Positions 15,321-36,054 of a stretch of 64,000 nt of DNA are shown here, piece after piece; the stretch's first letter is position 1; every line of letters begins with the position of its first letter. The notes beneath the pieces are model-generated. The model did not search any database and was not told where the DNA came from. It saw only the letters and a list, made by a program, of their open reading frames with translations. The position numbers were made by a program, and so were the translations under genes. Location: NCBI RefSeq assembly GCF_988242995.1, contig NZ_OZ547043.1. One strand, 5' to 3'.

Positions 15321-18300
15321 ATGTTGTGGGGTTTTGTTTTTGTATCTTTTATCTCTAAGGAGCTTGCTTTGGGTCAATCAGAATACATTTCATGGGTAAA
15401 ATGTACTTCCTGGCTAAGTAACTTTGTGAATCTTAGAGGGTTGAGACAACCGGATGGACGTCCTCTTTATGAATATCATGCAACCAATGCTGAATATAAC
15501 CAATTAACGCAGCTACTCTGTGCTGTTGGTCAATCACAATCTAATATATGTAATAGAGACTTTGCTGCCTGTTTTGTTCTTTTTTGCTCTGAGTGGTACC
15601 GCAGGGATTATGAACGGCAATGCGGATGGACGTGGGACCCTATATATAAAAAAATAGGGATTTCATTCACCGCCACAGAGCTTGGTACTATCGTACCGAA
15701 AGGGATGGAAGATTACTGGCTGCGCCCAATTCGATTTTATGAATCTGAACGACGTAATTTTCTCGGAACATTATTCAGTGAAGGTGGTTTACCTTTCCGG
15801 CTACTCAAAGAATCAGACAGTCGCTTTCTGGCTGTTTTCTCCAGGATCCTTGGACAATATGAGCAAGCAAAGCAGTCAGGTTTTTCTGCCCTTTCGCTGG
15901 CAAGAGCTGTCATAGAAAAATCAGCGCTGCCAACTGTTTTTAGCGAAGATACCTCTGTAGAACTTATCAGTCATATGGCTGATAACCTCAATTCCTTAGT
16001 ACTTACTCACAACCTAACAAATCACAAAGAACCAGTACAACAGCTTGATAAGGTTCACCCTACCTGGCGAAGCGAGTTTCCAATACCGTTAGATGATGAA
16101 ACAGGAACGCATTTTTTGAATGGACTGCTATGCGCAGCCTCTGTAGAGGCTAAGCCTCGACTACAAAAAAATAAGAGTACGCGTTGCCAATTCTATTGGT
16201 CAGAAAAGCATCCAGATGAGCTTAGGGTGATAGTATCTCTTCCTGACGAAGTTTCCTTTCCTGTAACTAGCGAGCCGTCAACTACGCGCTTTGAACTTGC
16301 CATTTATGAAGATGGTGAGGAAGTCTCTGGCCTTGGGCCAGCCTATGCTTCCCTGGAAAACAGACAGGCAACAGTTCGATTACGTAAAAGCGAAGTGAGA
16401 TTTGTCAGGCAAAATCCATCTGCAGGTTTGTCGTTAGTGGCTCGTGCTGGAGGGATGATTGTTGGGAGCATTAAACTTGATGACAGTGAAATTGCCATTG
16501 GTGAGGTGCCGTTAACCTTCATCGTTGATGCAGATCAATGGCTGTTACAGGGACAGGCCTCCTGCAGTGTGCGAAGCAGCGATGTTCTGATTGTGCTCCC
16601 TCGGGACAATAGCACTGTTGCTGGTTTTGATGGCCAATCGAGTGCAGTAAACGTATTAGGACTTAAAGCGCTACCTGTTAAGGGATGTCAGGACGTTACA
16701 GTTACAGCAAATGAAACTTATCGGATTCGCACCGGAAGAGAACAAATCAGCATCGGAAGGTTTGCTCTAAATGGAAAGCGTGCAAGCTGGGTTTGTCATC
16801 CAGATGAGACATTTATTGGTGTACCAAAAGTCATTTCTACACTACCAGATATTCAAAGCATTGATGTAACGCGTTACCTGAGCGGAATTTCAATTGAGCA
16901 ATGTCATATACAAGAGATGCTAGGGGCTCAATATCTTTCTATCCGTAATAGTAATAATGAAACGCTCTTGCGTCGCAAAATCGGTATCTTGCCTGCTGAT
17001 TTCAGTATTGAGATAAAAGGTGGAATGCACGCAAATGAAGGCACTATCGTAATCACCACACAGCATCCTTGTGTAGCAACACTTAAAGATAAAACATTGG
17101 AGGCTACACGTAAGCGTACTGAGGGGCGAACAGAGATACAACTCAAAGCGGAAGGGGTACCTCCGGCATTTATTACATTACAAGTTCTGCCTAATTTGGC
17201 GGCTGATACCATCGACATTGAGTTACCTTTCCCAGCTAAAGGCTGCCTTGCTCTTGATGTAAACGGACGTCCTCTGGATAAAAACATTACGCTGCATGAT
17301 CTGCTGGGTTCCAGAGCATTCCTGTTCTCCAGAAATGGTGAGCCGACAAAATATACATTGCAGTTGCATTTGCGCTCCATTAGTGGATTACAGGCATGGC
17401 ACGAATGGAGTTATACGGCATTGAGCGAGCGTCCTGTTGAATTGAATCTCTATAGTCTACGTGAACACATTGAAAATCTGATTTCACTTGAGGCAGGTAT
17501 TGATCAGGTTGTTGAGATGCGTATTACGGGGGCGGGTGTGGTCATGGCCTGGCAAATTCGTCGCTATAAATACAGCCTGCGCTATGATTATGAAAAAGAA
17601 CTATTACTCAGCCAGTCAGTGAACCATCGTGCTGGACAGATTCCTTCCCCCGTTATCATGCTGTTAAGTGAACCCGAGAGGAAATCCATTCCCTTAGCAT
17701 CAAGAATGAGCGAGGGAGTGCCTGTCGGTGAATATGAGTTGAGCTCAATCGTTAACAAAAACGGACCATGGTTGGTTGTTCCTAAACCGGGTGAAGAGAT
17801 GGCTTTTCGCCCCTGCTTCATTCGTGGCGAATCTTCGTTACCGGTAGAAGAAAGCAACATCCGCTCATTGCAGAAAGCGACCCAGCTTTTTAATCCACAG
17901 GCAGAAGTTAATACCATCACACGGGTTCTCGGACAGATGGCTAACGATCCTGCCCATTCCGGCTGGCAATTTATGCGTAGCCTGTACGATCAATTTGGTT
18001 ATTTACCGCTGGCAACCTTTGAAGTATGGCGTGCACTAGTGCAGCATCCGCAGGCATTGGCGATGTCGCTCTTCAAATTCGAAATGTCAGCAGAGTATCT
18101 GAGTCGTATTGAGAATGAGTTCCCTATTTTATGGGAGTTTTTCCCCATCTTTGAGATCAAAGCTGCATCTGAGCGTTTCAAATTGTTCCTGAGCCAAAAA
18201 GGTGCACCGGAGGAAACCCAGAAATTACTGGTTACCAATATGTTTCAACGGCTGGGGCTCGTGTTCCCGACATATGCCGATGAAATTGAGAAATGGTTAA

Positions 18301-18659
18301 GTAATGGATATCTCCCCCCGTCTATTCCTGAATCTTGTGTCCACGGGTGGTATCAGGAGCTCTTACGTGAGCACAGTGAAGCTCGCTGGCCTGAATACGG
18401 CTGCAAGCGTCTGTATAAATGGATGATGTCACAAAAAAATCCAGTGATTGGTATTAATCCTGACGCAAATCACCGCTATTCCGTGGCCTGGTTACCCGTC
18501 TTCGCCGCAGCGGTGGCAAGCGGAAATGCTTCTTTTGAATCTGTATTTGACCGTAAACCCGGTGCCGTATTTTTCCTGAGGCAAGTCAGGGATTTCGATT
18601 CCCGCTGGTTTAAGGCCATCTTCCAGTTCAGCCTGTTGCGTTATGTTGCTAAAAAATAA
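15321..18659 (+). CDS. yjiT: Large protein of unknown function (1112 aa); intact counterpart of the K-12 yjiT pseudogene; candidate DruH-like partner of the downstream helicase
   Basis: Uninterrupted 3.3-kb ORF with no motif I recognise; AT-rich 5' end; alternative in-frame TTG start at 15369 has a perfect AAGGAG Shine-Dalgarno; stop is 12 nt before the next gene. Confidence 0.8.
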   Translation: MLWGFVFVSFISKELALGQSEYISWVKCTSWLSNFVNLRGLRQPDGRPLYEYHATNAEYNQLTQLLCAVGQSQSNICNRDFAACFVLFCSEWYRRDYERQCGWTWDPIYKKIGISFTATELGTIVPKGMEDYWLRPIRFYESERRNFLGTLFSEGGLPFRLLKESDSRFLAVFSRILGQYEQAKQSGFSALSLARAVIEKSALPTVFSEDTSVELISHMADNLNSLVLTHNLTNHKEPVQQLDKVHPTWRSEFPIPLDDETGTHFLNGLLCAASVEAKPRLQKNKSTRCQFYWSEKHPDELRVIVSLPDEVSFPVTSEPSTTRFELAIYEDGEEVSGLGPAYASLENRQATVRLRKSEVRFVRQNPSAGLSLVARAGGMIVGSIKLDDSEIAIGEVPLTFIVDADQWLLQGQASCSVRSSDVLIVLPRDNSTVAGFDGQSSAVNVLGLKALPVKGCQDVTVTANETYRIRTGREQISIGRFALNGKRASWVCHPDETFIGVPKVISTLPDIQSIDVTRYLSGISIEQCHIQEMLGAQYLSIRNSNNETLLRRKIGILPADFSIEIKGGMHANEGTIVITTQHPCVATLKDKTLEATRKRTEGRTEIQLKAEGVPPAFITLQVLPNLAADTIDIELPFPAKGCLALDVNGRPLDKNITLHDLLGSRAFLFSRNGEPTKYTLQLHLRSISGLQAWHEWSYTALSERPVELNLYSLREHIENLISLEAGIDQVVEMRITGAGVVMAWQIRRYKYSLRYDYEKELLLSQSVNHRAGQIPSPVIMLLSEPERKSIPLASRMSEGVPVGEYELSSIVNKNGPWLVVPKPGEEMAFRPCFIRGESSLPVEESNIRSLQKATQLFNPQAEVNTITRVLGQMANDPAHSGWQFMRSLYDQFGYLPLATFEVWRALVQHPQALAMSLFKFEMSAEYLSRIENEFPILWEFFPIFEIKAASERFKLFLSQKGAPEETQKLLVTNMFQRLGLVFPTYADEIEKWLSNGYLPPSIPESCVHGWYQELLREHSEARWPEYGCKRLYKWMMSQKNPVIGINPDANHRYSVAWLPVFAAAVASGNASFESVFDRKPGAVFFLRQVRDFDSRWFKAIFQFSLLRYVAKK

Positions 18660-18671
18660 AAAGGAATAAGG

Positions 18672-21600
18672 ATGACTACACGCTATTTTTCGTCACTTAT
18701 TGAACAATCGTTGTCTCGTTCAACTGAAGCAACGCTCAGTATCATGGGCGTTACAAACCCGCAGTTGCGTGAACATCTCGCGCAGCAAATGGGGGCTGAT
18801 TGTGGGAAACCGGGCTCATTCCTTGCTTCTCCGGTATTCCAGCAAATGTTTGGCTGGAAGGAGTCAAACCACACGATGCGCAGTCTGACGGAAGGCAACG
18901 CATTGTTGAGCAAAGCAGTGGTTGATTCACTGGATGATCAGAGTAATGGCCGGTACCGATTTGGTGCTGACTGGAAGCCTTTTACACACCAGTTAGCCAG
19001 TTGGAAAGCTTTGCTGGAAAAGAAACATTCAGTGGTGGTAACCAGTGGTACGGGTTCAGGTAAAACGGAATGTTTTATGGTACCGGTGCTGGAAGATCTT
19101 TACCGGGAACTGCATGAAAATGGCAACAATCCGTTGGTCGGTGTCCGAGCCCTTTTTCTCTATCCATTGAACGCCTTGATTAATTCACAGCGCGAGCGTC
19201 TGGATGCCTGGACGCGTGGTTTTGGTACTGGGATCCGCTACTGCTTGTATAACGGAAATACAGAAGAGCTCCACGCAAAAATGAAAACAGTGCAGGATAA
19301 TAGACCAAATGAAGTCTTATCCCGTGAAAAGATGCGTCTGGAGCCAGCCCCGATTCTGGTGACCAACGGCACGATGCTGGAATATATGATGGTTCGCCAG
19401 GTCGACGCCCCGATTATCCAGCAATCCAAAGCACAAAAATCACTACGCTGGATTGTACTGGATGAAGCGCATACCTATGTCGGGTCGCAGGCCGCTGAAC
19501 TGGCACTCCAGCTGCGTCGTGTGATGACAGCGTTTGGCGTGACGCCAGATGATGTGCGCTTTGTAGCGACCTCTGCGACCATTGCCTGCAGCGACGCCGA
19601 AAAGCAGCTGAAAAAATTTCTCTCTGAATTATCCGGTATCCCGCAGGAGCGCATCGATGTTCTGGACGGAAGTCGGGTGATTCCTGAACTGGAACCATCC
19701 AAAAACGTTTCTGTTCCGTTAGACGAAATAGAGCAAATACCTGATCTGGATCTAAAAGATAAAAATGATAATAAAATTAAAGGGATAAGCCCTGAGCGCT
19801 TTTATGCGCTTACGCACTCCCCCGAAGCGCGTTACATACGTGAAATGTTGGTTAGCCAACCCAATCCAATGAAACTGGATGAGATGACGCAGCGGTTAAA
19901 TGCGCTGACAAAACAGCATTACAGCCAGCAGGAAGTACTGCGTTGGATCGATGTCTGTTCAGGGACTCAACCTAATGCAAAGGATCCCGCATTTCTTAAA
20001 GTCAGGGCGCATATCTTCCAGCGTAATACCCAAGGAATATGGGCTTGTGTTGATAAAGATTGCAGATTAAAGCACGGTACACCGCTCGAAAAAGGCTGGC
20101 CCTTTGGCTATGTGTATGTGAACCAGCGACAAAATTGTGACTGTGGAAGCCCTGTATACGAAGTTGCATTCTGTAATGATTGTAATGAGCCTCATCTTCT
20201 GGCGCAGGACAAAAAGGGCAAACTTGTCCAATGGGAAAATAAAGGTGGCGATGAGTTCTCCTTGCAGGATGAAGTACCTGTTGAACATGACACTACAGAG
20301 GAAAAAGTCGAAAAAGAGAACGGTTTCCTGCCTCCGTTGATTATTGCCGCAGGAGAGACCAGCGAGACAGGCTATACCCTACAACGCCTCGACCACCAGA
20401 CGCGCCGTATTGGCGTTATTAACAATGACAGCATTCCGCTGATTATTAATGATGTTGAACAGGTTTGTAGCGCCAGTGGCTGTGGCTACAGAGGCATGAG
20501 TGGGAAACAGCCCTTCCGGCGTGCACTATTAGGTGGGCCATTTTACGTTACTAATATCGTGCCCACCGTTCTTGAGTATTGTCAGGACTTTACCAGTGAT
20601 GAAGGCAAAGAGGGCGTCGGACCAGATTCGTTGCCAGGGCGAGGACGTCGACTCATTACCTTTACGGACAGTCGACAAGGTACAGCTCGAATGGCGGTGC
20701 GTATGCAGCAAGAAGCAGAACGCAGTCTCTTACGCGGAAGCGTAGTCGAAATTCTGAGCTGGCATCAACGGACGCAAACGTCCACGGCGCCGAATGCCAA
20801 TGCCGATCTGGAAAAATTAGCGGCCAGGGCAAAGCAAGCCCGTGAGCAGGCAGAAGAATATCGAAGCTGGGGAATGCCAGACCAGGCGAAATTGTCACAA
20901 GCACAGGCTGAACAGCTTGAACAGGCTTATCAGGCTGCAACCGGTGGAAAAGCAGCAACTACCCTGGTATCCCGCACCTGGACAGAAATGGTTAACGAGC
21001 TTAAAGATAAAGCCGATATCCGTGGCCCGGTACTGAAATATAACCACTATTTGCAGCCTGAAGTGTTTAATAAAAACGGCGGGCCACTAAAGCTTTCGGA
21101 AATGTTGTTGTTCCGGGAATTCATGCGTCGCCCTAAACGGACTAACAGCCTGGAAACACAGGGGCTGGTTCAGGTTGGTTACCAGGGGCTGGAGAAAATA
21201 CATAAGAGCCCCTTGCACTGGCAGGAAAAAGGATTAACGCTGGATGACTGGCGCGATTTTCTCAAGGTTACGTTGGATCTTTATGTTCGCGAAAGCAACT
21301 TCACACAGCTGGATGATGAGCTGAAAAACTGGATTGGTAGCCGTTTTTCATCAAAATTCGTCCGTAACCCGGAATCAAAAGATCCTGAAGATAATCAGAA
21401 CAGACGCTGGCCTCAAATTCGTAATGGCAACGTATCCCATCGTTTAGCGAAGTTACTGATGCTGGGGGCTGGATTCAAAACCGTCAATACGGCGACTATT
21501 GATATTATCAATACATGGCTGAAAGAAGCATGGGCCCAACTTACCGGACCACTTGCAGTACTGAAACCCGATGGCAACCGTTTTTATTTACCGAAAGAGC

Positions 21601-24600
21601 ATATGACTTTTTCTTTAATCACGGATGCCTGGATTTGCCCGGTAACCAATAAAATCCTGGATACGGCTTTTAAAGGCTTAACCCCTTATCTGCCCACCCA
21701 TATTTCGTTCGAGCATCTTACCCAGGCGCAATATGACACTTTTGTCGCGCAGAAAGTCACCATGCCGGAAATCTGGAAGCTGGATCGTTCACAGGAAGAC
21801 TACGCAGAGGGTCTGGCAAAAGCACGAGACTGGGTCAACAATGATCCGCTGATCGCACAATTGCGGTCGGAAAACGTCTGGACAGACATCAACGATCGTG
21901 TAGTGGAAGGCGGTTTCTACTATCGCACTGCCGAGCACTCTGCCCAGCAGTCGTCAGAACGCCTGCAAAGCTATGAAAAGATGTTCAAGAACGGGCAACT
22001 AAATGTTCTCAACTGTTCCACCACCATGGAAATGGGGGTTGATATTGGGGGCATTACTGCGGTGGTAATGAACAACGTTCCGCCACATCCGGCCAACTAT
22101 TTACAGCGCGCCGGGCGAGCCGGGCGTAGTAAAGAATCACGCGCGATCTCTTATACCCTATGCAAAGGTAACCCACACGACCAGCAGGTTTTTGCCAACC
22201 CACTCTGGCCATTTGAAACCATGATCCCGGCACCCATGGTCGCGATGAACTCCGCCCGACTGGTGCAACGTCACGTCAATGCATTATTACTGTCTGACTT
22301 TTTATGTAACGTTATTGGCGAAACCGATAAAGAGAAAACCAGCCTCGATAGCCTCTGGTTTTTCGGTGAAGATGACGGGCAGTCAAAATGCGAACGCTTT
22401 AAAGTCTGGCTGGAACGCCCGGTTCTTGATATCGACATGGCGCTGGAACGGCTGGTGAAAGGTACGGCGTTGCATGGCGCAAGAGCCGAACATCTGCGGG
22501 ATAAAACAATCAATGCGATCACCTTCCTGCAACAGCGGTGGCTCTCCGTTTATCGCGATCTCGTGACCCAGGAGCGTGAGTCGCAGCCGCAAACGCCTTA
22601 TCGTAAGCGCATAGAGCTGGAGAAGAAACGGCACTGTGGCGAGTATCTGCTGCGCGATCTGGCTGCCAGAACCTTCCTGCCGGGATACGGTTTCCCGACA
22701 GATGTAGTGACGTTTGATAACTTCACGATGGAAGATTATATCCGCGAAAAATCGCAGAAAAGTCGTGATAAAAAGGACCGTGAAGATAACGTCTCCCGTT
22801 ATAAAGGATTACCTTCCCGTAACCTCGGTGTTGCCATTCGTGAATATGCACCGGGAGCAGAGATCATTCTTGATGGTCGTGTCTTCCGCTCTGCCGGTGT
22901 CTCACTGCACTGGCACAACATTAATGCTGATACCAATGAAGCCCAGCGTCTGGATTGCGCCTGGCGCTGTCACAAATGCGGGACCATTGGCTATGAAGAG
23001 GGGATGAGCAGTTCCGGGATGCTCTTTTGCTCCAACAGCGCCTGCGGCGAAAAAATAACCATGGATAATCGCCGTCAGGTGTTGCAGCCTGCCGGGTTTG
23101 TCACCGATGCACACGCTCCGGTAACGAACAATATTGAAACCATGAAATTCGTCCCGGTTGTCCCCGCGTGGGTCTTTGTTAAAGCAGAGCCTGTACCGTT
23201 GCCTAACCCGCTAATGGGTTATATGGCTTCTGGGGCTGATGGGCATGTTTTCCAGCAAAGTTTGGGGGAAGGTGGACACGGTTATGCATTGTGTCTGAGC
23301 TGTGGCCGTGCGGAGTCGATGCTGAATGAAAATGATGCACCGAAAAGTATGGAAGCTCACTATCCACCGCGTCCGGGTAAAGCGGACCGCGACAGCCAGA
23401 ATCATCGTCTGATTTGCCCCGGTTCGACGGCACTCATGAAGAACGTCACCCTGGGCGCACTGGCGCGCACCGATGTCTTTGAAATGGTTCTGCGCAAACC
23501 GCAAAACGGCGAGTATCTGCCAGATAACACAGAAGAGGGGCGGATTGTCGCTATGACTCTGGCGGTTGCTCTGCGTCAGGCGCTGGCAGGCGTTCTGGGT
23601 ATCTCCGCCGCAGAACTCGGCTATTCTGTACGTCCGGTCAGACTGGAGGATGGGCAATCGGTATTAGCCGTTCAGCTTTATGATGTGATCAGCGGTGGTG
23701 CTGGTTTTGCCTCCAGCGCACCGGTACATATTGAAGCTATATTGCAGGGAATGGTGAAACAGTTAGGCTGCCGCCATTGTGATACTGCATGCAGTGAATG
23801 TCTGCTTGATTCCCAGACTCGCCACGATCACGATTTGCTGGATCGCAAAGTGGCGCTGGCTTGGCTTGGCGATGACTTCACGTATTACATCGGTTTACCG
23901 GATGAAGAGACATTCTCGCTGCCGGATGCCCGCTACTGCCCTGGCGCTATTGGCGATACGATTCGCCGGGCGATTAACGAAGGCGCTGAAAAGCTCACCC
24001 TGTGGATGACTGGCGCGCCCAATGAGTGGGATTTATACGGCCGTCAGTTCCGCGCGGCTATTCAGAGCTATCGGCTAAAAGACAACGTCGAGGTCGATCT
24101 TGTTATTCCTGCGGGAGTGGATGACCCAGACCTGTTGCATGAACTATCGCAATTTACTGCGCTGGGTGTGCGGTTGTGCCATGTTGAGCAGGAGCTGCAA
24201 TTACCGATTGTTGCCCAGGTCACCTTTGCCGATCGCGTGATGACGCTGGCCTCTCGCAGTCAGCAGGCAACGATTCCGGGGCCGGAGTGGCACCTGAATG
24301 ACGAACTGGTGGTGCGTAGTCTCGGTTATCAAACGGTAGAACTGAACGAGTTTATTCTGCCCGCTAAAGCCGCCAACGCTGTCGAGCGGGTCAAAGACAT
24401 TCAGATCCACAAACAGTTGAATGGACCACTTTCGCAGTTTGGGCAACGCTTCTGGGACGTGCTGTTTAACGACCATGAAGAAGCGCAGTCACTGATGAAA
24501 AACACGCGAATTACCGGCGTTCACTATACCGATCGCTATCTGCAAAACCCGGTTGCGCTGGCGTTGTTGGGATCAATTCTGAAACCGCTAAAAACAAAGC

Positions 24601-25016
24601 TGACCGATGGCGCTGAAGTGGCGCTGGATACGCTGTTTAAAGATAAAGATCGCCCCGGTAACCGGCCTTTCCATGACTGGATGAGCATAGCGGATTTTCA
24701 GGATTTCGCTGATCAGTGGTTTGCTGCTGCGCTGGGCAGGCCGATAGAACTGACGGTGTTCGATTCGCCGCGCGATATCCCTCACCATCGTAAACTGACG
24801 GTGACTTTTGAGGATGGTCAGGTATTGAAGATCCGCTTCGATCAGGGGATGGGCTACTGGCGCATCAACTTTGCATCGCAATGGCATTACTTTGATTTCC
24901 GCGATGACGTTTCTTTCCAGTTAGTCAAAATGGCTCAGGCCTGCAAGGAAGGGAATGTGGCCAACAGCGAAGAGAGCTGGGCAACGGATGTGCTGGTGGA
25001 GGTGATCGCCTCCTGA
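18672..25016 (+). CDS. yjiV: Giant SF2 (DEAH-type) helicase with Cys-ribbon modules (2114 aa); intact counterpart of the K-12 yjiV pseudogene; candidate DruE-like defence helicase
   Basis: AAGGAATAAGG Shine-Dalgarno before ATG 18672; Walker [10 protein letters not shown] (aa 124-132, nt 19041-19067); motif II VLDEAH (aa 262-267); motif [10 protein letters not shown] (aa 1145-1152); Cys clusters near nt 20046-20184 and CxxC...CxxC near nt 23292-23812. Confidence 0.85.
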
Positions 25017-25072: not shown

Positions 25073-26119
25073 TTATTTGAGATATTCATCGAAAATGGCG
25101 AGTAATTCTTGATGTATACACGGCCATTCCTGACCTAAATTGACGGTACACAGGCCAATATCGAAGCCATTAATTTTATAACGATGTTTCACTGCGGTGT
25201 CTACGTGGGGGTATATTAATAAACCCCCTATGTTTTCGCCATTTTCAGGTTTTAACGACCATAAGTAATTCATCAGTTGATAAAGATTTTGAGAGTGAAA
25301 TTTTTCTGAGCCCATTCGTCGTGAAAAAATGCTCTTATAGTATTTGGCGTCAACGATAAGTATTTTTTCTGATGAGCGAATGGTGATGTCAGTTTCCATT
25401 CGAGGTAACAAATTAAGTGACTGATCCGATATGCTCGATGCATCCCATTTTAAATAAGAGCGGGTTGTATTTGCAGACGTTAATTCACGGCGGCAAAATT
25501 CAAAAAGAAACTTTTGATAAAGTAATGACATCTCTTTTTCGTTTCTTTCAAAATCATAGAAACGGTAGTGTCCTTTGTTTTGACCTGGGATAGAATTATT
25601 GACGATGAACTTACAGACGCTGATAACAAATTTATAATAACGCGTGTTCTTTCCGCCATTCAGATAGCTGAAATGCTGCGGAGTTAAATGAAGAGTGCTA
25701 ATGCCCGGTAATTTTCTATAAAGTGAACGAGCTTCATCTCTGATGGTTGAGTTTAACTTTTCATGCTTAATTAACATGGCTAATGTGCTTTTTATAATTC
25801 GGTTAGCCAGCGTATCTTCATTAAGCAGATCAAAAGTACTGACGGTTTTCCCATGATTAAGATGGAAGCCGCGTATTGTTTTAGCAAACTCTATTCGCCC
25901 TTTGATGCCAGGAATGATCTCGGTATTAGGATTGTAATCAAGCTCAAGCCCTCGGCGTGAAAGCTGTAAAACCCCTTTATTTAATACATACCCCAGGATA
26001 TCAAGAAGATTGTTACCGGGAATGGCTTCAAGGTCGGCCTGCTTAATTTCCTGTAAATAACCCCATGCATAGGTAAGCATGTAATAGATATTACGGACAG
26101 GTATCACGGGCTGTTCCAC
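25073..26119 (-). CDS. mcrC: McrC, nuclease subunit of the McrBC modified-cytosine restriction system
   Basis: 348-aa ORF; its start overlaps the mcrB stop; AT-rich codon usage typical of mcrBC; matches McrC length. Confidence 0.9.
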   Translation of the reverse strand: MEQPVIPVRNIYYMLTYAWGYLQEIKQADLEAIPGNNLLDILGYVLNKGVLQLSRRGLELDYNPNTEIIPGIKGRIEFAKTIRGFHLNHGKTVSTFDLLNEDTLANRIIKSTLAMLIKHEKLNSTIRDEARSLYRKLPGISTLHLTPQHFSYLNGGKNTRYYKFVISVCKFIVNNSIPGQNKGHYRFYDFERNEKEMSLLYQKFLFEFCRRELTSANTTRSYLKWDASSISDQSLNLLPRMETDITIRSSEKILIVDAKYYKSIFSRRMGSEKFHSQNLYQLMNYLWSLKPENGENIGGLLIYPHVDTAVKHRYKINGFDIGLCTVNLGQEWPCIHQELLAIFDEYLK

Positions 26120-27498
26120 TATGAGTCACCTAATAATTTGTCGGCCCATATCTGTTGTTTATAGGGGTCATCAAAGAAATATTCTTCGAGTAAAGGGGCG
26201 ATATCCGTCATCACAATTTCCTTAAGCCATTGCGTATCAGGAGAGGTGCCATCTTCCAACCCGGAGCAGAAGTAACTATGCCCAATGCGGAATCCTTTCC
26301 CAAGGATAGTGGCCTCTTTGCTGATTTCCTGGTTTAACTCATTCATTTTTTGGCATAAAGACTCAACAAATGAAGGTTCTGCTTTTTTATTCAGTAAAAA
26401 ATTACGGAACTGTGGTGTATCAAAACCAGGCTCAATATCTATGAAAGAAAATCGTCTGCGCAGGGCATAATCAACAACGGCCAGAGAGCGATCGGCAGTA
26501 TTCATTAAACCGATAATATAAACATTCTCCGGGACATAGAATCGTTCTTCATCGTTTTCGGAATAGGTTAAGGGAACAGACCAGTTTTCACCTCGTTTAT
26601 CATGTTCCATTAACATCATCACTTCGCCAAATACTTTACTGAGATTGGCACGATTGATTTCATCTATAATAAAAACATACTTTTTCTCTGGCTGCTCTTT
26701 AGCTTGCTGACAAAAATTGTAAAATATGCCGTCTTTACGTCGGAAGCCGACGCCATTCGGACGATAGCCCTGTATAAAATCCTCATAGCTATAAGATTGA
26801 TGGAACTGAACCATATTGACGCGTTGCGGAGCCTTTTCTCCTGTCAGCAGGTAAGCCAGACGGCGTGCAACAAAGGTTTTTCCAACGCCGGGCGGCCCCT
26901 GGAGGATAATATTTTTTTTGATGGTTAATCGTTTGAGTATCGTCTCTATCGTGGTTTCAGGGATAAACAAATCATTTAACGCATCTTCCAGACAGTATGA
27001 TTCAGTTTTTGACATAGGTGGAATAACACTCTTGCCAGAATTAAATATTAATTTATAGTCGTTGATTATGTTGTCCAGCATGGAGGCAAACCGGGTATAA
27101 TCAAGACCCTGTGAGACTTTTTGGGAACAGGCGTAATAGGACTGTCCGTATTTTTTAGGATAAACACCTGAAGTTGTCTGGAAATACTCTGCGATTGTTT
27201 TAGGTATGTCTGAAGAGAACTGCCATTGGGCATGTGGTTTATTCGTGTCGCTTATACCATAAGCCAAAACCAACTCATCAAAATCTTTATAATAGAGAAT
27301 AACGGGATATATACCGTTAGAAACTTCCTGACCTTCTCCCAGAAATGCAAACCAGGGAATAGATGTAAAATTGCCATAACCGAAACTCACTTTTACTCGC
27401 AGGTTACGGTAAGACGTTGGATAATCTTTGGTGGATTGTGAACTTTTTTGCTGTGCTTGCTCAATAAATTTTTCAATCCAGGCTTGAATTGATTCCAT
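26119..27498 (-). CDS. mcrB: McrB, GTP-binding AAA+ DNA-binding subunit of McrBC
   Basis: Start at ATG 27498 (MESIQAWIEKF..., AGGAAGG Shine-Dalgarno) gives 459 aa; the ORF-track Met six codons upstream is the alternative; Walker A GPPGVGKT; in-frame internal Met162 (codon 27013-27015) matches the known McrB-s short form. Confidence 0.9.
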   Translation of the reverse strand: MESIQAWIEKFIEQAQQKSSQSTKDYPTSYRNLRVKVSFGYGNFTSIPWFAFLGEGQEVSNGIYPVILYYKDFDELVLAYGISDTNKPHAQWQFSSDIPKTIAEYFQTTSGVYPKKYGQSYYACSQKVSQGLDYTRFASMLDNIINDYKLIFNSGKSVIPPMSKTESYCLEDALNDLFIPETTIETILKRLTIKKNIILQGPPGVGKTFVARRLAYLLTGEKAPQRVNMVQFHQSYSYEDFIQGYRPNGVGFRRKDGIFYNFCQQAKEQPEKKYVFIIDEINRANLSKVFGEVMMLMEHDKRGENWSVPLTYSENDEERFYVPENVYIIGLMNTADRSLAVVDYALRRRFSFIDIEPGFDTPQFRNFLLNKKAEPSFVESLCQKMNELNQEISKEATILGKGFRIGHSYFCSGLEDGTSPDTQWLKEIVMTDIAPLLEEYFFDDPYKQQIWADKLLGDS

Positions 27499-27659
27499 AA
27501 GATGTGCCTTCCTCATTGCTAAGCCTCTATTATCGCTTTCGCAACGTACTGAAACAATAGATTTTTACTGCAAAAGGTGGTGGGTAAATATTTACTGAGG
27601 GGGAAAGTTTCTATTGAGTCAGTGGAAGGCTCCCGGTGGTTAACCGGGAGTAAACGCTG

Positions 27660-28001
27660 TTACGCGACTTTCTGTTTACCGGCAATCACTCCAATAAACG
27701 CCTGCACCTGCTTTTGTTTACGTGCCGACAGCTTGCACACCTGGCGCAGCGACTGCATCAGTTCGCTCTCTTCGACGGCGAGTGGTTGGGCGGTGAGGAC
27801 AATACAGCCTTCCATCACTTTGACATCTACCGCCGTGCCGGTGGTAAAACCGGCGGCTTCCAGCCACTGACCTTTCAGGGTGATGGCGGGAATACGGCTG
27901 TAATCCGGGTAGCGACTCGCATAACTCACGGTTAATTGACGGTTATTTGCCGGGGAGACTTCTGCTTCGAACGGTTGTGCAATAGAATGCATGTCAGTCA
28001 T
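27660..28001 (-). CDS. symE: SymE, SOS-induced toxin-like protein (AbrB-fold; YjiW)
   Basis: 113-aa ORF ([52 protein letters not shown]...); LexA-box-like site about 78 nt upstream. Confidence 0.85.
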
Positions 28002-28071
28002 GATTACTATTCCTTAGAAATAGGGATTGTGATTAGCGGTGCGGGTGTGTTGGCGCACATCCGCACCGCGC
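27995..28071 (+). ncRNA. symR: SymR (RyjC) cis-antisense sRNA opposite the symE 5' end; coordinates approximate
   Basis: Candidate -10 TAGAAT at 27983-27988 on the + strand inside the symE 5' coding region; transcript would cover the symE start codon and Shine-Dalgarno and end at a GC-rich hairpin (about 28035-28071); ends not verifiable here. Confidence 0.4.
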
Positions 28072-28078
28072 TAAATAC

Positions 28079-28228: not shown

Positions 28229-29653
28229 TCAGAACTTTTTACGCGAGGCTTTTTTACCCCCGCTGGCTGCGCGCTCAGCTTTGATTTTCTCCAGCAACGC
28301 AGCGGCGCTGTTTTCTCCGCTGATTAAATCCGGGTTTTCGGCCCGCCACTGGGCGGTGAGTTCACCACGGAACGCTTTTGCCAGGATGGATTGCGTCAGG
28401 TTGTTGACGCGGGCTAAGGCGTTGTTGACCTGTTTTTCTATGGAGTCGGCGTAGGCGAAGAGTTGCTCGACGCGGCGAACGATTTCGTGTTGTTCTTCTA
28501 TAGACGGTAAAGGGACAAATGCATTTTTAAGATCTTTTAAATTTAATGTCTTTCTGGCGACCTCCTTAGATGACTGAACTAGCCATGTTTGCATAACTGG
28601 TGAACTTAACCATATATGGAGAAACATAGGAACAATAATCTTATATTCAGGAGATATTCTGGCAACGGCACGAGCGATATTAACATTTATATCTTCTCTA
28701 ACAATACCTATTCTACCTATAGCCCCAACAATTGTTACAAGAATGTCATTCTTTCGTACTTTGGAACGCTTATATTGTAAATCTATTTCCTTTGAAATTT
28801 TACGAAGATGATTTAAATCTACTTCACCATCGTTAATATCACAAACACGAATTAATTCTATACCGTCTTTTATATCATCTCCAGGTTGCACCACACCATA
28901 ACATAATGGTCTTTGTGTATTGATAATGTTATTCAAAATTGTTTCACTCCAGTCTTCTGGAATAAGGATTTTGTAGTTATCTAATTCAACTTTTTTTGTT
29001 ATAAAATCTTTATCTTCTTTGGTCAACCTACCAGTTACTGCCGCAGCCAACACCGCCTGACGAAAACGTTTCAGGATTTGTGGGATTTGCTCAAGGCGTG
29101 CTTTGGTGCTGTCTACCTGCGCCAGCAGCGTATCGAGTTTTTCAGCGATGATTTTTTGCTCGGCAAGTGGTGGCAACGGAAGTAGGGTATCTTGAAGTGT
29201 CCTGGAAGAAAGATGCTTTACAGTAACCGAGGACGTATTTGCATTGATTGCGGATAAATATCCTGGTAAGGCGTGATAGAAAAACCTTTTATTGTATTTG
29301 TCTTCCTGAACTTCAATTTTACATACTCGTTGATTTAACAGAGCTGGTTCTGAGCACCATATAGTTGCATTAAAATCACCATCCATTCCCACGATTAAGT
29401 CTTCGGGATATACCCAATATCCCTCAGGAATTTGACCCGAGTAATAAGTCGATGTATTACCTTTTAGAACATCACGAATTCTAATTAATGGTACACCATC
29501 TTTACGATTATTAAATTCTGACGACTTAAAAGCAAAACCGTTTGTGATGTTTGCTACGGAATCCATTGAAATACGTAACCAGCTATCATGGATTGAAAGT
29601 AACCCATTGATATTTTGCTCAATTAATTCTTTTGATGTTGAGTTGAAACTCAT
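28229..29653 (-). CDS. hsdS: Type I restriction-modification specificity subunit HsdS (474-aa allele)
   Basis: 474-aa ORF; GC-richer conserved N-terminal, central and C-terminal segments separated by two very AT-rich blocks (target-recognition domains); 4-nt overlap with hsdM. Confidence 0.9.
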   Translation of the reverse strand: MSFNSTSKELIEQNINGLLSIHDSWLRISMDSVANITNGFAFKSSEFNNRKDGVPLIRIRDVLKGNTSTYYSGQIPEGYWVYPEDLIVGMDGDFNATIWCSEPALLNQRVCKIEVQEDKYNKRFFYHALPGYLSAINANTSSVTVKHLSSRTLQDTLLPLPPLAEQKIIAEKLDTLLAQVDSTKARLEQIPQILKRFRQAVLAAAVTGRLTKEDKDFITKKVELDNYKILIPEDWSETILNNIINTQRPLCYGVVQPGDDIKDGIELIRVCDINDGEVDLNHLRKISKEIDLQYKRSKVRKNDILVTIVGAIGRIGIVREDINVNIARAVARISPEYKIIVPMFLHIWLSSPVMQTWLVQSSKEVARKTLNLKDLKNAFVPLPSIEEQHEIVRRVEQLFAYADSIEKQVNNALARVNNLTQSILAKAFRGELTAQWRAENPDLISGENSAAALLEKIKAERAASGGKKASRKKF

Positions 29654-31239
29654 TCCTTCACCCCACCAAACGCTTCTTCCAGCAACTGACGCTGTGCATC
29701 CGCCTCATCGCTCGCTCCCAGTTCACGTATCAGCGCATCCAGTTCGCCCAGCGCCTGTACCAGCTCGCCCATCGCTTCTGCCGCTAATACATCCGGCTCC
29801 GGCAGGTTGTCGGCATCAATGCTATCTTTATCTTTCAGCCAGGAGATATCCAGCGAATCGGATTTCGTGGTGCGGATCCACTCGCGGGTGAACTTACGCC
29901 AGCGGCTGGTAGCCAGGTGCTGGTCGGTGTTTTTGTTCTCTTCGCTGTCGGCAACTTCCGTCTCTTCGGCGTTAAAACTCCATTCCCCTTCGCTACGCGG
30001 GCTTAAACCGTGCGGATCTTCGCCATACACGCGCTCAAACGGCTGCAGATGCTCGTCGGTAAACGGCGTGCGTTTGCCGAAGCTCGGCATATTGGTACGC
30101 AGGTCGTACACCCACACATCATCGGTACAGTTCTTATCCTGATGCGGGTTCGCCACCGTCCCTTTGGTAAAGAACAGCACGTTCGCCTTCACGCCCTGCG
30201 CGTAAAAAATACCGGTCGGCAGACGCAGAATAGTGTGCAGATGACACTTATCCATCAGGTCACGACGGATGTCCGTGCCTTTGCCGCCTTCAAACAGCAC
30301 GTTATCCGGCACCACCACCGCCGCACGACCGCCGGGGTGCAGTGTTTCGATAATATGCTGCATAAAGCACAATTGTTTGTTGCTGGTCGGGTGAACAAAG
30401 GTACGGGTAATGTTGGTGCCTGCGGCGCTACCAAACGGCGGGTTAGTGGCGACAATATGCGCCTTCGGCAGGTTTTCACCGTCGCTACCCAGGGTGTTGC
30501 CCAGACGGATTGCGCCACCGTGGTCGAGGTTGCCTTCGATATCGTGCAGCAGGCAGTTCATTAGCGCCAGACGACGGGTGCCGGGTACCAGTTCGAGGCC
30601 GATAAACGCGCGGTGGATCTGGAAATCCTGCGTGTCGCCATCAAGGTCGTCCAGATCGTTAGTCTGCGACTTAACGTAGCGGTCAGCTTCAATCAAAAAG
30701 CCCGCTGTACCTGCTGCCGGGTCCTGCACCACTTCACGCGGCTGCGGTTTCAGCAGATGAATAATGGTTTTAATCAGCGGACGTGGGGTGAAGTACTGGC
30801 CCGCGCCAGACTTGGTTTCGTTGGCGTTTTTCTGCAACAGCCCTTCGTACATATCGCCGAAGTCATCGCGTGACTTACCGTGCGCGCCGTTGTACCAGTC
30901 CAGTGAATCCATATTGCTGACCAGTTCGGTCAACTGTTTCGGCTGGGTAATGGTGGTGTTGACGTTCTGGAACACCGCCTGCACCAGCTTTTGATTGTCG
31001 GCGCCCAGATGCACCAGCAGGTTACGGTAGAACTGCAACTGCTCCTGGCCGATGCGGGATTTCAGGTCATCCCAGCGGTAGCCTTCCGGCAGGTATTCCG
31101 CTTCCTGTCCGGTTTCTTTACACATTTTCAAAAACAGCAGCGAGGCGAGTTCATTGACGTAGTTTTGATAGGAAACGCCGCCATCGCGCAGGTTGTCGCA
31201 CAGTTTCCACAGCTTCGCGACCAGATCGTTATTGTTCAT
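29650..31239 (-). CDS. hsdM: Type I R-M N6-adenine DNA methyltransferase HsdM
   Basis: 529-aa ORF; catalytic NPPF motif (VATNPPFGSAAG); AdoMet-binding region. Confidence 0.95.
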   Translation of the reverse strand: MNNNDLVAKLWKLCDNLRDGGVSYQNYVNELASLLFLKMCKETGQEAEYLPEGYRWDDLKSRIGQEQLQFYRNLLVHLGADNQKLVQAVFQNVNTTITQPKQLTELVSNMDSLDWYNGAHGKSRDDFGDMYEGLLQKNANETKSGAGQYFTPRPLIKTIIHLLKPQPREVVQDPAAGTAGFLIEADRYVKSQTNDLDDLDGDTQDFQIHRAFIGLELVPGTRRLALMNCLLHDIEGNLDHGGAIRLGNTLGSDGENLPKAHIVATNPPFGSAAGTNITRTFVHPTSNKQLCFMQHIIETLHPGGRAAVVVPDNVLFEGGKGTDIRRDLMDKCHLHTILRLPTGIFYAQGVKANVLFFTKGTVANPHQDKNCTDDVWVYDLRTNMPSFGKRTPFTDEHLQPFERVYGEDPHGLSPRSEGEWSFNAEETEVADSEENKNTDQHLATSRWRKFTREWIRTTKSDSLDISWLKDKDSIDADNLPEPDVLAAEAMGELVQALGELDALIRELGASDEADAQRQLLEEAFGGVKE

Positions 31240-31439: not shown

Positions 31440-34400
31440 TCAGGCCAGCTCGTCCCAAATGTAATCGCTGAATTTATCGAGCAGGTTGTCGAGATTATCG
31501 TCAAAGGTTCTTTGCAGCATCGCCTTCCCGCCGCGACGGTGGAAGTTGCCGGTTTTGAAGACATCGTCGTCGAGCACCACTTTCTCTTTCAGCGCCTGCG
31601 CTAAACGATCGAGCCAGCTTAATTGCTCGCTGCTCCAGTCATTTTCGCCCTTAATGCGCGTCAGCGCGTGATCGACACGTTCCTCAAACGGTTTCAGCGC
31701 ATCGCCCACCGCAGCGCGGCGAATATGTCCAATCAGCCGGGCGGCGATATCTTCATTGCGCGTCTCTTGCCATGCTTTGCGCAGGGAAGATTCCTCAAAG
31801 TGCTGGCGGTCAAACCACTCCTGTAGCTCGACCAGCCCTTTACGGGTGAGATCGCGCGGGCGATTAATCACCGCCTGCAATGCCGGCTGTGCATTCGGGG
31901 AACGTTGCACCAGCGAGTCAAAGGCTTCGAGGAAATCCTGCGGCGTGTCGTAATCACCGTACAGCGATTTTACGCTCACCACTTCATCGTCGATATCGAG
32001 GAAGATCGGCGCATCATTCAGGTTGTTGATGTCGGTTTTCAGCTTTTCCAGACGGGCGATAAAGCCAGGTAGTTTGTTAAAGACTTCGGCGCTCCAGTGC
32101 GGCCCTTTTTCCCGCAGGCGCGAGGCGAAGCCGTTAAAGTTAACCCCCGCCGCGTCCTGGCATAGCTCATCCAGACGACGCACCTGTTTGTCTATCGTTT
32201 CGCTGCGGTCACGGTTAAACGTGGCCAGGCCGATGATGCGCTGGAGCTTCGCCACCAGTTGTTCATGGCTGTGCTCGGCAAAACTGCGGCCATCCGCTTC
32301 GGTGATTTTATAGGTTTCTGAATCGGTAATTTCGTTGACCAGCGTTTGCAGTTCCACCTTCGGACGCACCACCACCGGACGCATGGTGTCGACGCTCTCC
32401 AGCGTGCTGTAGATATCGACACAGTCGAAAATCTTAAAGCTGGTTTTATTCACCTCCGGGCATAAGCGCGTGGCGCGCCCTTTCATCTGCTCGTACAGAA
32501 TACGGCTGCGTACCTTGCGCAGGAACACGATATTACAGATCGACGGAATATCGACGCCGGTCGTCAGCAGGTCGACGGTGACCACGATATTGGGCAGCCG
32601 CTCTTTATTGAAGCGGGTGATCATGGTCTGCACTTTTCGCGCGTCTTTATCGGCATCACCGGTGATCTTGATGATCGCGTCGTGCTCCAGTTGTGGATAC
32701 TTTTTCTTGAACGCGGTACGCAGCTCTTCCACCACCATATCGGCATGGGCATTGGTGACGCAGAAGACCAGCGTTTTTTGTGACCCGGTCGGGTCAAGGT
32801 AGTTGGTGAGTTCGTTACAGACGGCGCGGTTAAACGCCGGGATCACCAGGCCACGGTTAAAGTCGGCGACCTCAAAATCCTGATCGTCTTCCAGGGTGTC
32901 GTTGATCACTTCCCCCTGCGGGCTGATGCGCTCAACCTGCTCGCCTTTGGAGAGATAAACCCCTTCCTGGGCGTTGCGGGTGGTGATCTGAATCGGCGGA
33001 TCCTGGTCGATCAGAAAACCGTCGATAACCGCGGTACGGTAGGTGTAACGGTAAACCGGCTCGCCGAAAATCTGCACCGTATGCAGAGCCGGGGTGGCGG
33101 TGAGAGCGATTTTTACCGCATCGAAGTGATCGAGAATACGACGGTAGGCAGAGACGTAATCCAGCTGACTGCGGAACTGTAGTTCGCCTTCGGTCTGCTC
33201 TTTATCGAGAATGTAGCCGCGATGCGCTTCATCGACGACGATACAGTCGTAACGGGCTACCGGCATCGGTTCATCCGATTGCAGGGTGCGTTTCACCAGC
33301 GACTGTACGGTGGCAACGTGAATTTTGGTGCTGTCTTCAGGGAATTTATCCGTCAGCCCTTTAATGTCGAAAATGCTGTTAAAGGTGTCGCCGTTAATAC
33401 GCGTATCTTCAAACGCGCCCAGCGCCTGTTCGCCAAGAGAACGGCGGTCGACAAGGAAGAGAATGCGTTTAAAACGCTGGGACTGGATCAGGCGGAACAT
33501 CATGGCAATTGCCGTACGGGTTTTACCGGTACCGGTTGCCATCGCCAGCAGGATCTCTTGTTGCCCCTTGACGATTGCCTTTTCAACCGCGCGGACGGCA
33601 TCTTCCTGATAATAACGCAGGCCCAGCTCACTCATGCCAGGGTTATCGGCAAACCACTGATTCTGTTTTTGCGGTTCGCTGCCGAGCATTTCCAGCAGCT
33701 CTTCCGGGCGGTGCCACTCGGGTAAGGCTTTCGACATATTGCGGGTATCACGCACGTCGCGATACCAGATGCCGCTTTTAATCTTCATCGCTGCGCGGTA
33801 TTCGCGCCCGTTGGTTGAGTAGCAGAAGGGGATTTTAAACCGTTGTTGGCCGCTGGTGTCCTGCCAGCTGGTTTCATACTCTGGCACCGCTTCATGCACT
33901 TCATCTGGTGAATAGTGCTCAAGCAAGGTTTCCCGCAGGAAGCCATTATCGAAACATTTACTGTAGCGATACGACTCATTGAGCTTGCCGGGAACGTCGA
34001 TATTTTTACGTTTCGCTTCTACCACCGCGATGGGTTTGAGACCGACAAACAGCACATAATCCGCAAAGCCCTGATTACCCGTTTCATCTTTCCCGGTCGG
34101 CCATTCGGCAATGGCTTTATTGACGCCGGGTTCCGGGCGCGCGCCTTTGGAGAAGCGCAGGGTTTTGCTATCGGCCTGCCAGCCTGCTTTACGCAGTTGC
34201 GCGTCAATCAGGAAGCGGCTCTCTTCTTCGCTAAGATTGAGTGTACGCTTGATGGCCTGATCGGTAATTTCTTTGTGGTAAGCCTTACGTTCCTGTTCGG
34301 TCTGCTTGGCCAGTTCCGCGTTCTTCTCGGCGAGCTGTGCTTCCAGTGCAGCAAGGCGAGCCTGGGTTTGCGCTTCGGTTTCCTGCTGCTTGCCTTCCAG

Positions 34401-34952
34401 AATGGCGATATAGCCGTTCAGGGCAACCAGCTTCTGCTGTTGTGCTTCGACTTCTGCCTGACTCTGCGCTTTTTCTCGCACCTGCTGTTCAAGCTGTTGT
34501 TTTAGCGTCAGCACTTCCTGGTGATAGAGGTTTTCACCACGTTCCGGCAACACAAACACCGGCACCGGGAAGTCATAATCTTTAGTGACCAGACGGTAGT
34601 ACCAGACAGCCAGGCGAAACCCGAGTCGCAGGCACATCTGGGCATCGTCGAGATCGTTATGATATTCGTGCACCGCCTGGTTACCAATGCGGCGTAATTT
34701 GTGGAATACAGAGAGAATGTTGTCATCAACGAAGGCGATTTTGCCGAGTTCGCGCAGGAGATCGTGTTGATTCTCACAAGGGGGGATGTTGAGTAACAGA
34801 CCAAGATGTTTCGCTGTGGCTTCGCCAAACATACGCATTTTAATCAGCGTCGTGTTGGGATCATCCGGGTAGTTATTTTCCGCCGCACAGGCGATGGCAT
34901 AGGTAAAGTCGTTGACGCCCTTCAGGAATTCAAAATTGGATTTATTCATCAT
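31440..34952 (-). CDS. hsdR: Type I R-M restriction endonuclease/translocase HsdR
   Basis: 1170-aa ORF; SF2 motifs (Walker A MATGTGKT, DEAH VVDEAHR); N-terminal nuclease region. Confidence 0.95.
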   Translation of the reverse strand: MMNKSNFEFLKGVNDFTYAIACAAENNYPDDPNTTLIKMRMFGEATAKHLGLLLNIPPCENQHDLLRELGKIAFVDDNILSVFHKLRRIGNQAVHEYHNDLDDAQMCLRLGFRLAVWYYRLVTKDYDFPVPVFVLPERGENLYHQEVLTLKQQLEQQVREKAQSQAEVEAQQQKLVALNGYIAILEGKQQETEAQTQARLAALEAQLAEKNAELAKQTEQERKAYHKEITDQAIKRTLNLSEEESRFLIDAQLRKAGWQADSKTLRFSKGARPEPGVNKAIAEWPTGKDETGNQGFADYVLFVGLKPIAVVEAKRKNIDVPGKLNESYRYSKCFDNGFLRETLLEHYSPDEVHEAVPEYETSWQDTSGQQRFKIPFCYSTNGREYRAAMKIKSGIWYRDVRDTRNMSKALPEWHRPEELLEMLGSEPQKQNQWFADNPGMSELGLRYYQEDAVRAVEKAIVKGQQEILLAMATGTGKTRTAIAMMFRLIQSQRFKRILFLVDRRSLGEQALGAFEDTRINGDTFNSIFDIKGLTDKFPEDSTKIHVATVQSLVKRTLQSDEPMPVARYDCIVVDEAHRGYILDKEQTEGELQFRSQLDYVSAYRRILDHFDAVKIALTATPALHTVQIFGEPVYRYTYRTAVIDGFLIDQDPPIQITTRNAQEGVYLSKGEQVERISPQGEVINDTLEDDQDFEVADFNRGLVIPAFNRAVCNELTNYLDPTGSQKTLVFCVTNAHADMVVEELRTAFKKKYPQLEHDAIIKITGDADKDARKVQTMITRFNKERLPNIVVTVDLLTTGVDIPSICNIVFLRKVRSRILYEQMKGRATRLCPEVNKTSFKIFDCVDIYSTLESVDTMRPVVVRPKVELQTLVNEITDSETYKITEADGRSFAEHSHEQLVAKLQRIIGLATFNRDRSETIDKQVRRLDELCQDAAGVNFNGFASRLREKGPHWSAEVFNKLPGFIARLEKLKTDINNLNDAPIFLDIDDEVVSVKSLYGDYDTPQDFLEAFDSLVQRSPNAQPALQAVINRPRDLTRKGLVELQEWFDRQHFEESSLRKAWQETRNEDIAARLIGHIRRAAVGDALKPFEERVDHALTRIKGENDWSSEQLSWLDRLAQALKEKVVLDDDVFKTGNFHRRGGKAMLQRTFDDNLDNLLDKFSDYIWDELA

Positions 34953-35139: not shown

Positions 35140-36054
35140 ATGACGGTTCCTACCTATGACAAATTTATTGAACCTGTTCTGCGTTATCTGGCGACAAAAC
35201 CGGAAGGTGCAGCCGCGCGTGATGTTCATGAGGCTGCCGCGGATGCATTAGGACTGGATGACAGCCAGCGAGCGAAAGTCATTACCAGCGGACAACTTGT
35301 TTATAAAAATCGTGCAGGCTGGGCGCATGACCGTTTAAAACGTGCCGGGTTGTCGCAAAGTTTGTCGCGTGGCAAATGGTGCCTGACTCCTGCGGGTTTT
35401 GACTGGGTTGCGTCTCATCCCCAGCCAATGACGGAGCAGGAGACGAACCATCTGGCCTTCGATTTTGTGAATGTCAAACTTAAGTCACGGCCGGATGCCG
35501 TCGATTTAGATCCGAAAGCCGACTCTCCCGATCATGAAGAACTTGCAAAGAGCAGCCCGGACGATCGGTTAGATCAGGCGCTAAAAGAGCTTCGTGATGC
35601 GGTGGCTGATGAGGTTCTGGAAAACTTATTGCAGGTTTCTCCTTCGCGCTTTGAAGTCATTGTTCTGGATGTTTTGCATCGCCTGGGGTATGGCGGCCAC
35701 CGTGATGATTTGCAGCGTGTTGGCGGTACTGGAGATGGTGGCATCGATGGTGTGATATCGCTTGATAAACTTGGCCTGGAGAAAGTTTATGTTCAGGCAA
35801 AACGTTGGCAGAACACTGTAGGCAGGCCAGAATTACAGGCATTTTACGGCGCACTGGCTGGGCAAAAGGCGAAACGTGGGGTGTTTATTACCACTTCTGG
35901 ATTTACGTCTCAGGCGCGTGACTTTGCTCAATCCGTCGAGGGTATGGTGTTGGTTGATGGGGAACGCCTGGTGCACTTAATGATCGAAAACGAAGTAGGG
36001 GTTTCTTCACGTTTGTTGAAGGTGCCGAAACTGGATATGGACTATTTTGAGTGA
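35140..36054 (+). CDS. mrr: Mrr, type IV methylated-DNA restriction endonuclease
   Basis: 304-aa ORF; N-terminal winged-helix and C-terminal Mrr catalytic region; synteny next to hsdR. Confidence 0.9.
   Translation: MTVPTYDKFIEPVLRYLATKPEGAAARDVHEAAADALGLDDSQRAKVITSGQLVYKNRAGWAHDRLKRAGLSQSLSRGKWCLTPAGFDWVASHPQPMTEQETNHLAFDFVNVKLKSRPDAVDLDPKADSPDHEELAKSSPDDRLDQALKELRDAVADEVLENLLQVSPSRFEVIVLDVLHRLGYGGHRDDLQRVGGTGDGGIDGVISLDKLGLEKVYVQAKRWQNTVGRPELQAFYGALAGQKAKRGVFITTSGFTSQARDFAQSVEGMVLVDGERLVHLMIENEVGVSSRLLKVPKLDMDYFE

Follow-up and report, generated by a model that had tools for sequence, protein, structure and literature searches.

In Escherichia coli K-12, mcrB and its short product McrB-S (b4346; NP_418766.4, YP_010051217.1) form the closest described system to the locus reported here. 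The gene encodes two proteins, McrB-L and McrB-S, which are identical save for the 161 N-terminal residues missing in McrB-S (PMC2993543). The two products have been reported at 51 kDa (McrB-L) and 33 kDa (McrB-S) (PMC3874153), and the DNA-recognition domain comprises residues 1-161 of McrB (PMC3424535). The short form, also written McrBS, is produced by internal initiation (PMC12707154) and is involved in modulating activity (PMC2993543). Reviews describe McrB-S as drawing McrC into complexes that are unable to bind DNA. When overexpressed, McrBS takes McrC away from the active complex, and the restriction of T4gt is suppressed by five orders of magnitude (PMC12707154). Knowledge of this modulation in K-12 dates back to 1989-1998. 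McrB-S sets the strength of McrBC restriction on methylated DNA, and this has a bearing on cloning hosts and on the entry of phages and plasmids.

The genes infB (IF2-alpha/beta), clpB (ClpB-93/79) and mrcB (PBP1b) resemble mcrB in that one open reading frame (ORF) gives rise to two products with a common C-terminus. Their short forms, like McrB-S, are without the N-terminal domain and co-assemble or compete with the long form. McrB-S differs from these in that it titrates a separate partner subunit, McrC, and in that its internal start is not accompanied by a strong Shine–Dalgarno (SD) sequence.

Two ribosome-profiling preprints (bioRxiv 10.1101/520783, 10.1101/511675) interchange the gene names mcrB and mrcB, and text mining for internal initiation in mcrB would be misled by them. 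In the Weaver 2019 preprint, the form “MrcB” appears with a citation of Ross 1989, which deals with mcrB. The “mcrB” given as a verified internal start in the Meydan 2019 Ribo-RET preprint is a typographical error for mrcB, as the legend says mrcB and the accompanying citation is Broome-Smith 1985 on PBP1b; the entry is therefore no evidence for an internal start in mcrB.

The mcrB gene of the window and its internal ATG

The window analysed here is a stretch of 64,000 nucleotides of contig NZ_OZ547043.1 (assembly GCF_988242995.1). The longest ORF in the mcrB frame runs from 27516 to 26119 on the minus strand and has a length of 465 amino acids. From the annotated start onward the product has 459 amino acids, and its RefSeq name is McrB. 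It contains the Pfam domain MrcB_N (PF12102) at residues 22-104, scoring 28.7 bits where the cut-off is 25, and the AAA_5 GTPase domain (PF07728) at residues 196-350, with 111 bits. In searches of the PDB, the McrB-N structure 3ssc aligned to residues 1-163 (E = 2e-102) and the full-length K-12 McrB chain 6ut6 to residues 1-459 (1031 bits). The identity to the K-12 structures 6ut6 and 7vsr is 97% at the protein level, end to end. Directly downstream lies mcrC, the ORF of which matches Pfam McrBC (PF10117) at 93 bits and has a GTG start codon that shares 1 nt with the stop codon of mcrB. By these matches, the gene is assigned as mcrB, from the McrBC system of E. coli, which is a type IV (modification-dependent) restriction system; the allele is of the B type. 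Since the K-12 protein, which has been characterised, is 97% identical, the window McrB would be expected to carry out GTP-dependent cleavage of RmC-containing DNA. The coordinates of the features are collected in Table 1.

Table 1. Features of the mcrB locus, in coordinates of the window
Feature	Coordinates	Strand	Basis or detail
mcrB full-length CDS (McrB-L, 459 aa + stop), B-type allele WP_000443948.1	26119..27498	-	ORF list, RefSeq start, Pfam, PDB
Codons 1-161, N-terminal 5-methylcytosine-binding domain (McrB-N), missing from the short form	27016..27498	-	PDB, PMC3424535, Pfam
Internal in-frame ATG, codon 162, probable McrB-S start codon	27013..27015	-	Sequence; corresponds to YP_010051217.1 start
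Probable McrB-S CDS, 298 aa + stop, AAA+ GTPase and McrC-binding part	26119..27015	-	897 nt
AAGAG, a weak SD-like motif with a 13-nt spacer to ATG162	27029..27033	-	Best anti-SD duplex -2.7 kcal/mol
Most AU-rich 25-mer of the mcrB CDS, AACGACUAUAAAUUAAUAUUUAAUU, 88% AU	27039..27063	-	Sliding-window composition; -48..-24 from ATG162
Weak sigma-70-like match TGGACA-16-TAAATT, candidate internal promoter, unsupported	27050..27077	-	9/12 matches
Shine–Dalgarno AGGAAGG of the main start	27507..27513	-	Anti-SD duplex -8.5 kcal/mol
Upstream in-frame ATG, 465-aa form MRKAHL-MES..., probably not the main start	27514..27516	-	Sequence, ORF list
mcrC, nuclease partner, 348 aa, GTG start	25073..26119	-	Pfam McrBC PF10117, RefSeq annotation

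The window allele is 100% identical to mcrB of BL21-AI and strain 2452, among others, and an mcrB match is present in only 598 of 5,426 complete E. coli genomes. The identity to K-12 mcrB is 97.1%, with 42 differences over 1398 nt and 15 amino acid differences over 459 residues. Nine of the 15 substitutions lie in the N-terminal domain and six in the part common to McrB-S. Two of them, L37V and A59V, lie in McrB-N at or beside the listed DNA contacts (Ser38, Glu58, Ala59 and Ser60), and DNA recognition by the B-type enzyme may differ slightly from that of K-12. The two loci have the context hsdS-symE-mcrB-mcrC in common, and K-12 likewise possesses the internal ATG at codon 162, the main ATG with its SD sequence and the 1-nt overlap with mcrC.

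An earlier note on this DNA had claimed that an in-frame ATG at codon 162 would leave a product of 298 amino acids from which the DNA-binding domain at the N-terminus is missing. The codon was found at 27015-27013 of the minus strand, codon 162 when counted from 27498, and 298 codons remain before the TAG at 26121-26119. The codon lies at the boundary between the DNA-binding and the GTPase domain. The N-domain constructs in the PDB (the 3ssc family) align to residues 1-163, while the McrB delta-N chain 6hz4, from the cryo-EM structure of the McrBC complex solved with McrC, aligns to residues 162-459; codon 162 therefore lies exactly at the boundary chosen by structural biologists. The solved delta-N assembly with McrC is effectively one of McrB-S with McrC.

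An in-frame ATG is by itself unremarkable and is no more than chance gives. There are 10 in-frame ATG codons in mcrB from the annotated start onward and the Met content is about 2%, so that an ATG within a linker of approximately 15 residues is not surprising. ATG162 is meaningful because it lies in the interdomain linker and within a stretch matching K-12, for which annotation and documentation of the short product exist. The K-12 reference (NC_000913.3) carries a second CDS under mcrB with the product name “mcrB-S” (YP_010051217.1), which starts 483 nt (161 codons) into mcrB and ends at the common stop; its start corresponds to position 27015 of the window. From -66 to +65 of the internal ATG (CDS nt 418-548, with the ATG at nt 484), the window and K-12 do not differ at any base. 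As none of the 42 differences falls within nt 418-548, the whole internal initiation region matches K-12.

The correspondence to the known McrB-s form that the earlier note had drawn is thereby borne out, as alignment to K-12 mcrB, which the note had proposed as a check, places the internal ATG at the same codon 162. The role in modulating McrBC activity that it had attributed to this form agrees with the reviews, for K-12 (PMC2993543, PMC12707154). It is very probable that the window mcrB encodes McrB-L and McrB-S in one frame, as in K-12. This interpretation is supported, and already known, because of the K-12 reference annotation and the reviews; McrB-S is a known feature that is already in the reference annotation.

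By analogy with K-12, ribosomes that initiate at ATG 27498, with its strong SD sequence, would produce the 459-amino acid McrB-L, in which the 5mC-binding domain is joined to the AAA+ GTPase. Independent initiation at ATG 27015, within the interdomain linker, would yield the 298-amino acid McrB-S, which consists of the GTPase and McrC-binding part alone. This short form would still assemble into GTP-dependent rings and bind McrC, with no binding of DNA. As McrB-S binds McrC but not DNA, McrC would be titrated into inactive complexes, and the level of restriction would be set by the ratio of McrB-L to McrB-S to McrC. For this allele, synthesis of the short product and titration of McrC are carried over from the K-12 literature and should be read as predicted.

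The finding matters mainly for annotation. In the B-strain records examined, including that of BL21, only the long CDS is present and mcrB-S is unannotated, whereas the K-12 reference has both. On the basis of homology, the short form could be added to B-type records.

Two database matches of similar size were observed alongside. A cluster of 298-amino acid proteins (P0013), equal in length to McrB-S and of 96% identity, has 214 member sequences from contigs of at most 1.7 kb, and Q47375 (match P0025), an old entry from E. coli under the name “33kD protein (put.)”, has 294 amino acids and 82% identity. Neither constitutes independent evidence of expression.

Initiation signals at the internal ATG

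No canonical SD sequence is found 5-10 nt before ATG162; the best pairing is that of AAGAG, with a spacer of 13 nt. In a scan of anti-SD duplexes, the SD strength at ATG162 (-2.7 kcal/mol) did not stand out from that at the remaining internal Met codons of mcrB. The predicted accessibility of the region from -18 to +12 is average, with a rank of 180 among 450 codon positions. The sole initiation feature that stands out near ATG162 is the AU-rich tract. It is this upstream tract, rather than an SD sequence, that may help to recruit the ribosome to ATG162. The McrB-S start is not recognisable from its ribosome-binding signals.

The weakness of these signals bears on a second route to the same protein, in which McrB-S is translated from a shorter transcript of its own, initiated at a promoter inside mcrB, with ATG 27015 still serving as the start codon. 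If the leader were short and unstructured, the weakness of the SD sequence would be of less consequence, and the sigma-70-like match TGGACA-16-TAAATT (27077-27050) is situated 35 nt upstream of ATG162, inside the AU-rich tract. However, the match covers only 9 of 12 positions, and the promoter-like hits in the region number six, which is below the mean of 7.8 in shuffled sequence. A literature search for transcription start sites of an internal mcrB promoter returned nothing relevant. Reviews (including PMC12707154) describe an internal translation start, and two independent sites of translational initiation are named in the title of the primary paper. A separate transcript thus appears unlikely, and internal initiation on the mcrB message is preferred.

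The start of the long form

The main start is ATG 27498-27496 on the minus strand, where the earlier note had placed it with exact coordinates, and it is preceded by AGGAAGG at 27513-27507 with a spacer of 8 nt. The anti-SD duplex at this ATG (-8.5 kcal/mol) is the strongest among all in-frame starts. A single base in the spacer before the main ATG differs between the two alleles, a C in the window and a T in K-12. The mcrB genes of K-12 and BL21-AI in RefSeq both begin at the ATG equivalent to 27498. An SD-like motif precedes the main start in all three orthologues compared, in the form of GTAAGGGA in one and TAAGGAG in two.

The earlier note had listed ATG 27516, six codons upstream, as a third possible start. 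It is a real feature of the ORF, indeed its first ATG, but it is the less likely start on account of the orthologues, the position of the SD sequence and the 459-amino acid form in RefSeq and the PDB. Were it the true start, or an additional one, the long form would have 465 amino acids (MRKAHLMES...) and three products would be possible. A plausible SD sequence, AGAGG (27528-27524), precedes this codon at a spacing of 7 nt and pairs at -5.8 kcal/mol. Both ATGs are kept in K-12, in the divergent E. coli allele E7-1N7 and in an orthologue of 88% identity, and one representative of a protein-database cluster (P0001) is the 465-amino acid form. Against this, the stronger AGGAAGG (-8.5 kcal/mol) sits between the two ATGs, where it serves 27498, and it is a protein of 459 and not 465 amino acids that is found in RefSeq for K-12 and B and in the full-length PDB chain 6ut6. 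In the syntenic 88% orthologue (L006), the AGAGG of the upstream ATG is lost while the SD sequence of the second ATG is retained. In the orthologues of 74% (L008) and 70% (L007) identity, an MQS start preceded by TAAGGAG follows two to four codons after a TAA in the same frame. Initiation at ATG 27516 is accordingly improbable, and the orthologue comparison favours ATG 27498 as the main start.

Conservation of codon 162 and the surrounding genes

The conservation of the internal start was assessed in an alignment of 33 proteins of the same two-domain architecture, with 44-97% identity to the window protein. Met is present at column 162 only in the window protein and in the representative of the K-12-type cluster; it is found in none of the 31 more distant homologues of the same architecture, including the syntenic 88% orthologue. 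The linker around this column is hypervariable and rich in indels. Orthologues of McrB in other Enterobacteriaceae (DUF3578/MrcB-family; for example Enterobacter hormaechei, Citrobacter and Klebsiella) have the same two-domain architecture, with mcrC directly downstream and a 1-nt overlap. They differ in that no Met is present at the 162 position and in that the linker is of another length and sequence.

The comparison at the DNA level, which covered three of these orthologues, revealed no AUG, GUG or UUG at the equivalent linker site. In the 88% orthologue (L006), which has the context hsdM-hsdS-mcrB-mcrC-helicase, codon 162 is AAT and no AUG, GUG or UUG is found between codons 141 and 177. 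The 74% (L008) and 70% (L007) orthologues likewise have no start at the equivalent site. The syntenic orthologues of 70-88% identity have no Met162, and the short form therefore seems to be confined to the E. coli lineage. Comparison with the 31 homologues, in which Met162 is not conserved, lends no support to an isoform that is required for function outside E. coli.

These observations, together with the weak SD sequence and average accessibility, are what might be expected if ATG162 were an ordinary internal Met codon in this strain, with no significant short product and with any 33-kDa species arising by proteolysis in the flexible linker, but the region from -66 to +65 is without base difference from K-12, where the internal-initiation product is documented and annotated, and identical translation signals should act alike within one species, which makes this the least probable reading of all, and initiation at ATG162 by far the better one.

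Within E. coli, the site is well kept. The 40-mer from -20 to +20 around ATG162 has at least 99% identity in 563 of the 585 detectable E. coli copies. In E7-1N7, the most divergent E. coli allele examined, ATG162 is kept despite six substitutions in the preceding 22 nt. Seven substitutions in all are clustered around the ATG in this allele (L005 959-991, equivalent to window 27037-27005), and the changes are G155D, K156E, S157R, two silent Pro changes and T165N. The predicted SD pairing at ATG162 is -6.3 kcal/mol in E7-1N7 vs. -2.7 kcal/mol in the window allele, and this rise suggests that the output of McrB-S may vary from strain to strain. From these comparisons, the chances are evenly balanced that the McrB-S start is a young innovation of the E. 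coli lineage and not a general property of McrBC, in which case the self-titrating modulator would be a recent regulatory add-on whose strength is still varying between strains. Only two points of this analysis are mildly new: ribosome-binding signals do not reveal ATG162 as a start, and its conservation does not extend past E. coli-type alleles.

The genes that surround mcrB were also recorded. The symE gene (SymE_toxin, 113 amino acids; 27660-28001, minus strand) is located directly upstream of mcrB, as in K-12, and the antitoxin sRNA SymR (27996-28072, plus strand; Rfam RF01809, 93 bits) lies antisense over the 5′ end of symE. Beyond these, the ORFs at 28229-29653, 29650-31239 and 31440-34952 (all minus strand) and 35140-36054 (plus strand) match hsdS, hsdM, hsdR and mrr of strain 2452 in size and order, and the immigration control region of the window therefore appears complete. 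In BL21-AI, hsdS is interrupted by IS1, whereas it is intact in the window. IS1 also cuts mcrC in strain 2452, whereas the window has an mcrC ORF of 348 amino acids. The window is therefore derived from neither of these two records.

On the other side, an intact Druantia type III pair (15321-18659 and 18672-25016, both on the plus strand) is convergent with mcrC. An ORF of 1112 amino acids (15321-18659, plus strand) matches DruH3 (PADLOC, 1830 bits). An ORF of 2114 amino acids (18672-25016, plus strand) with the domains DEAD, Helicase_C and MZB matches DruE3 (2692 bits). Whereas the DruE homologue is intact in the window, K-12 and BL21-AI carry it as a truncated pseudogene.
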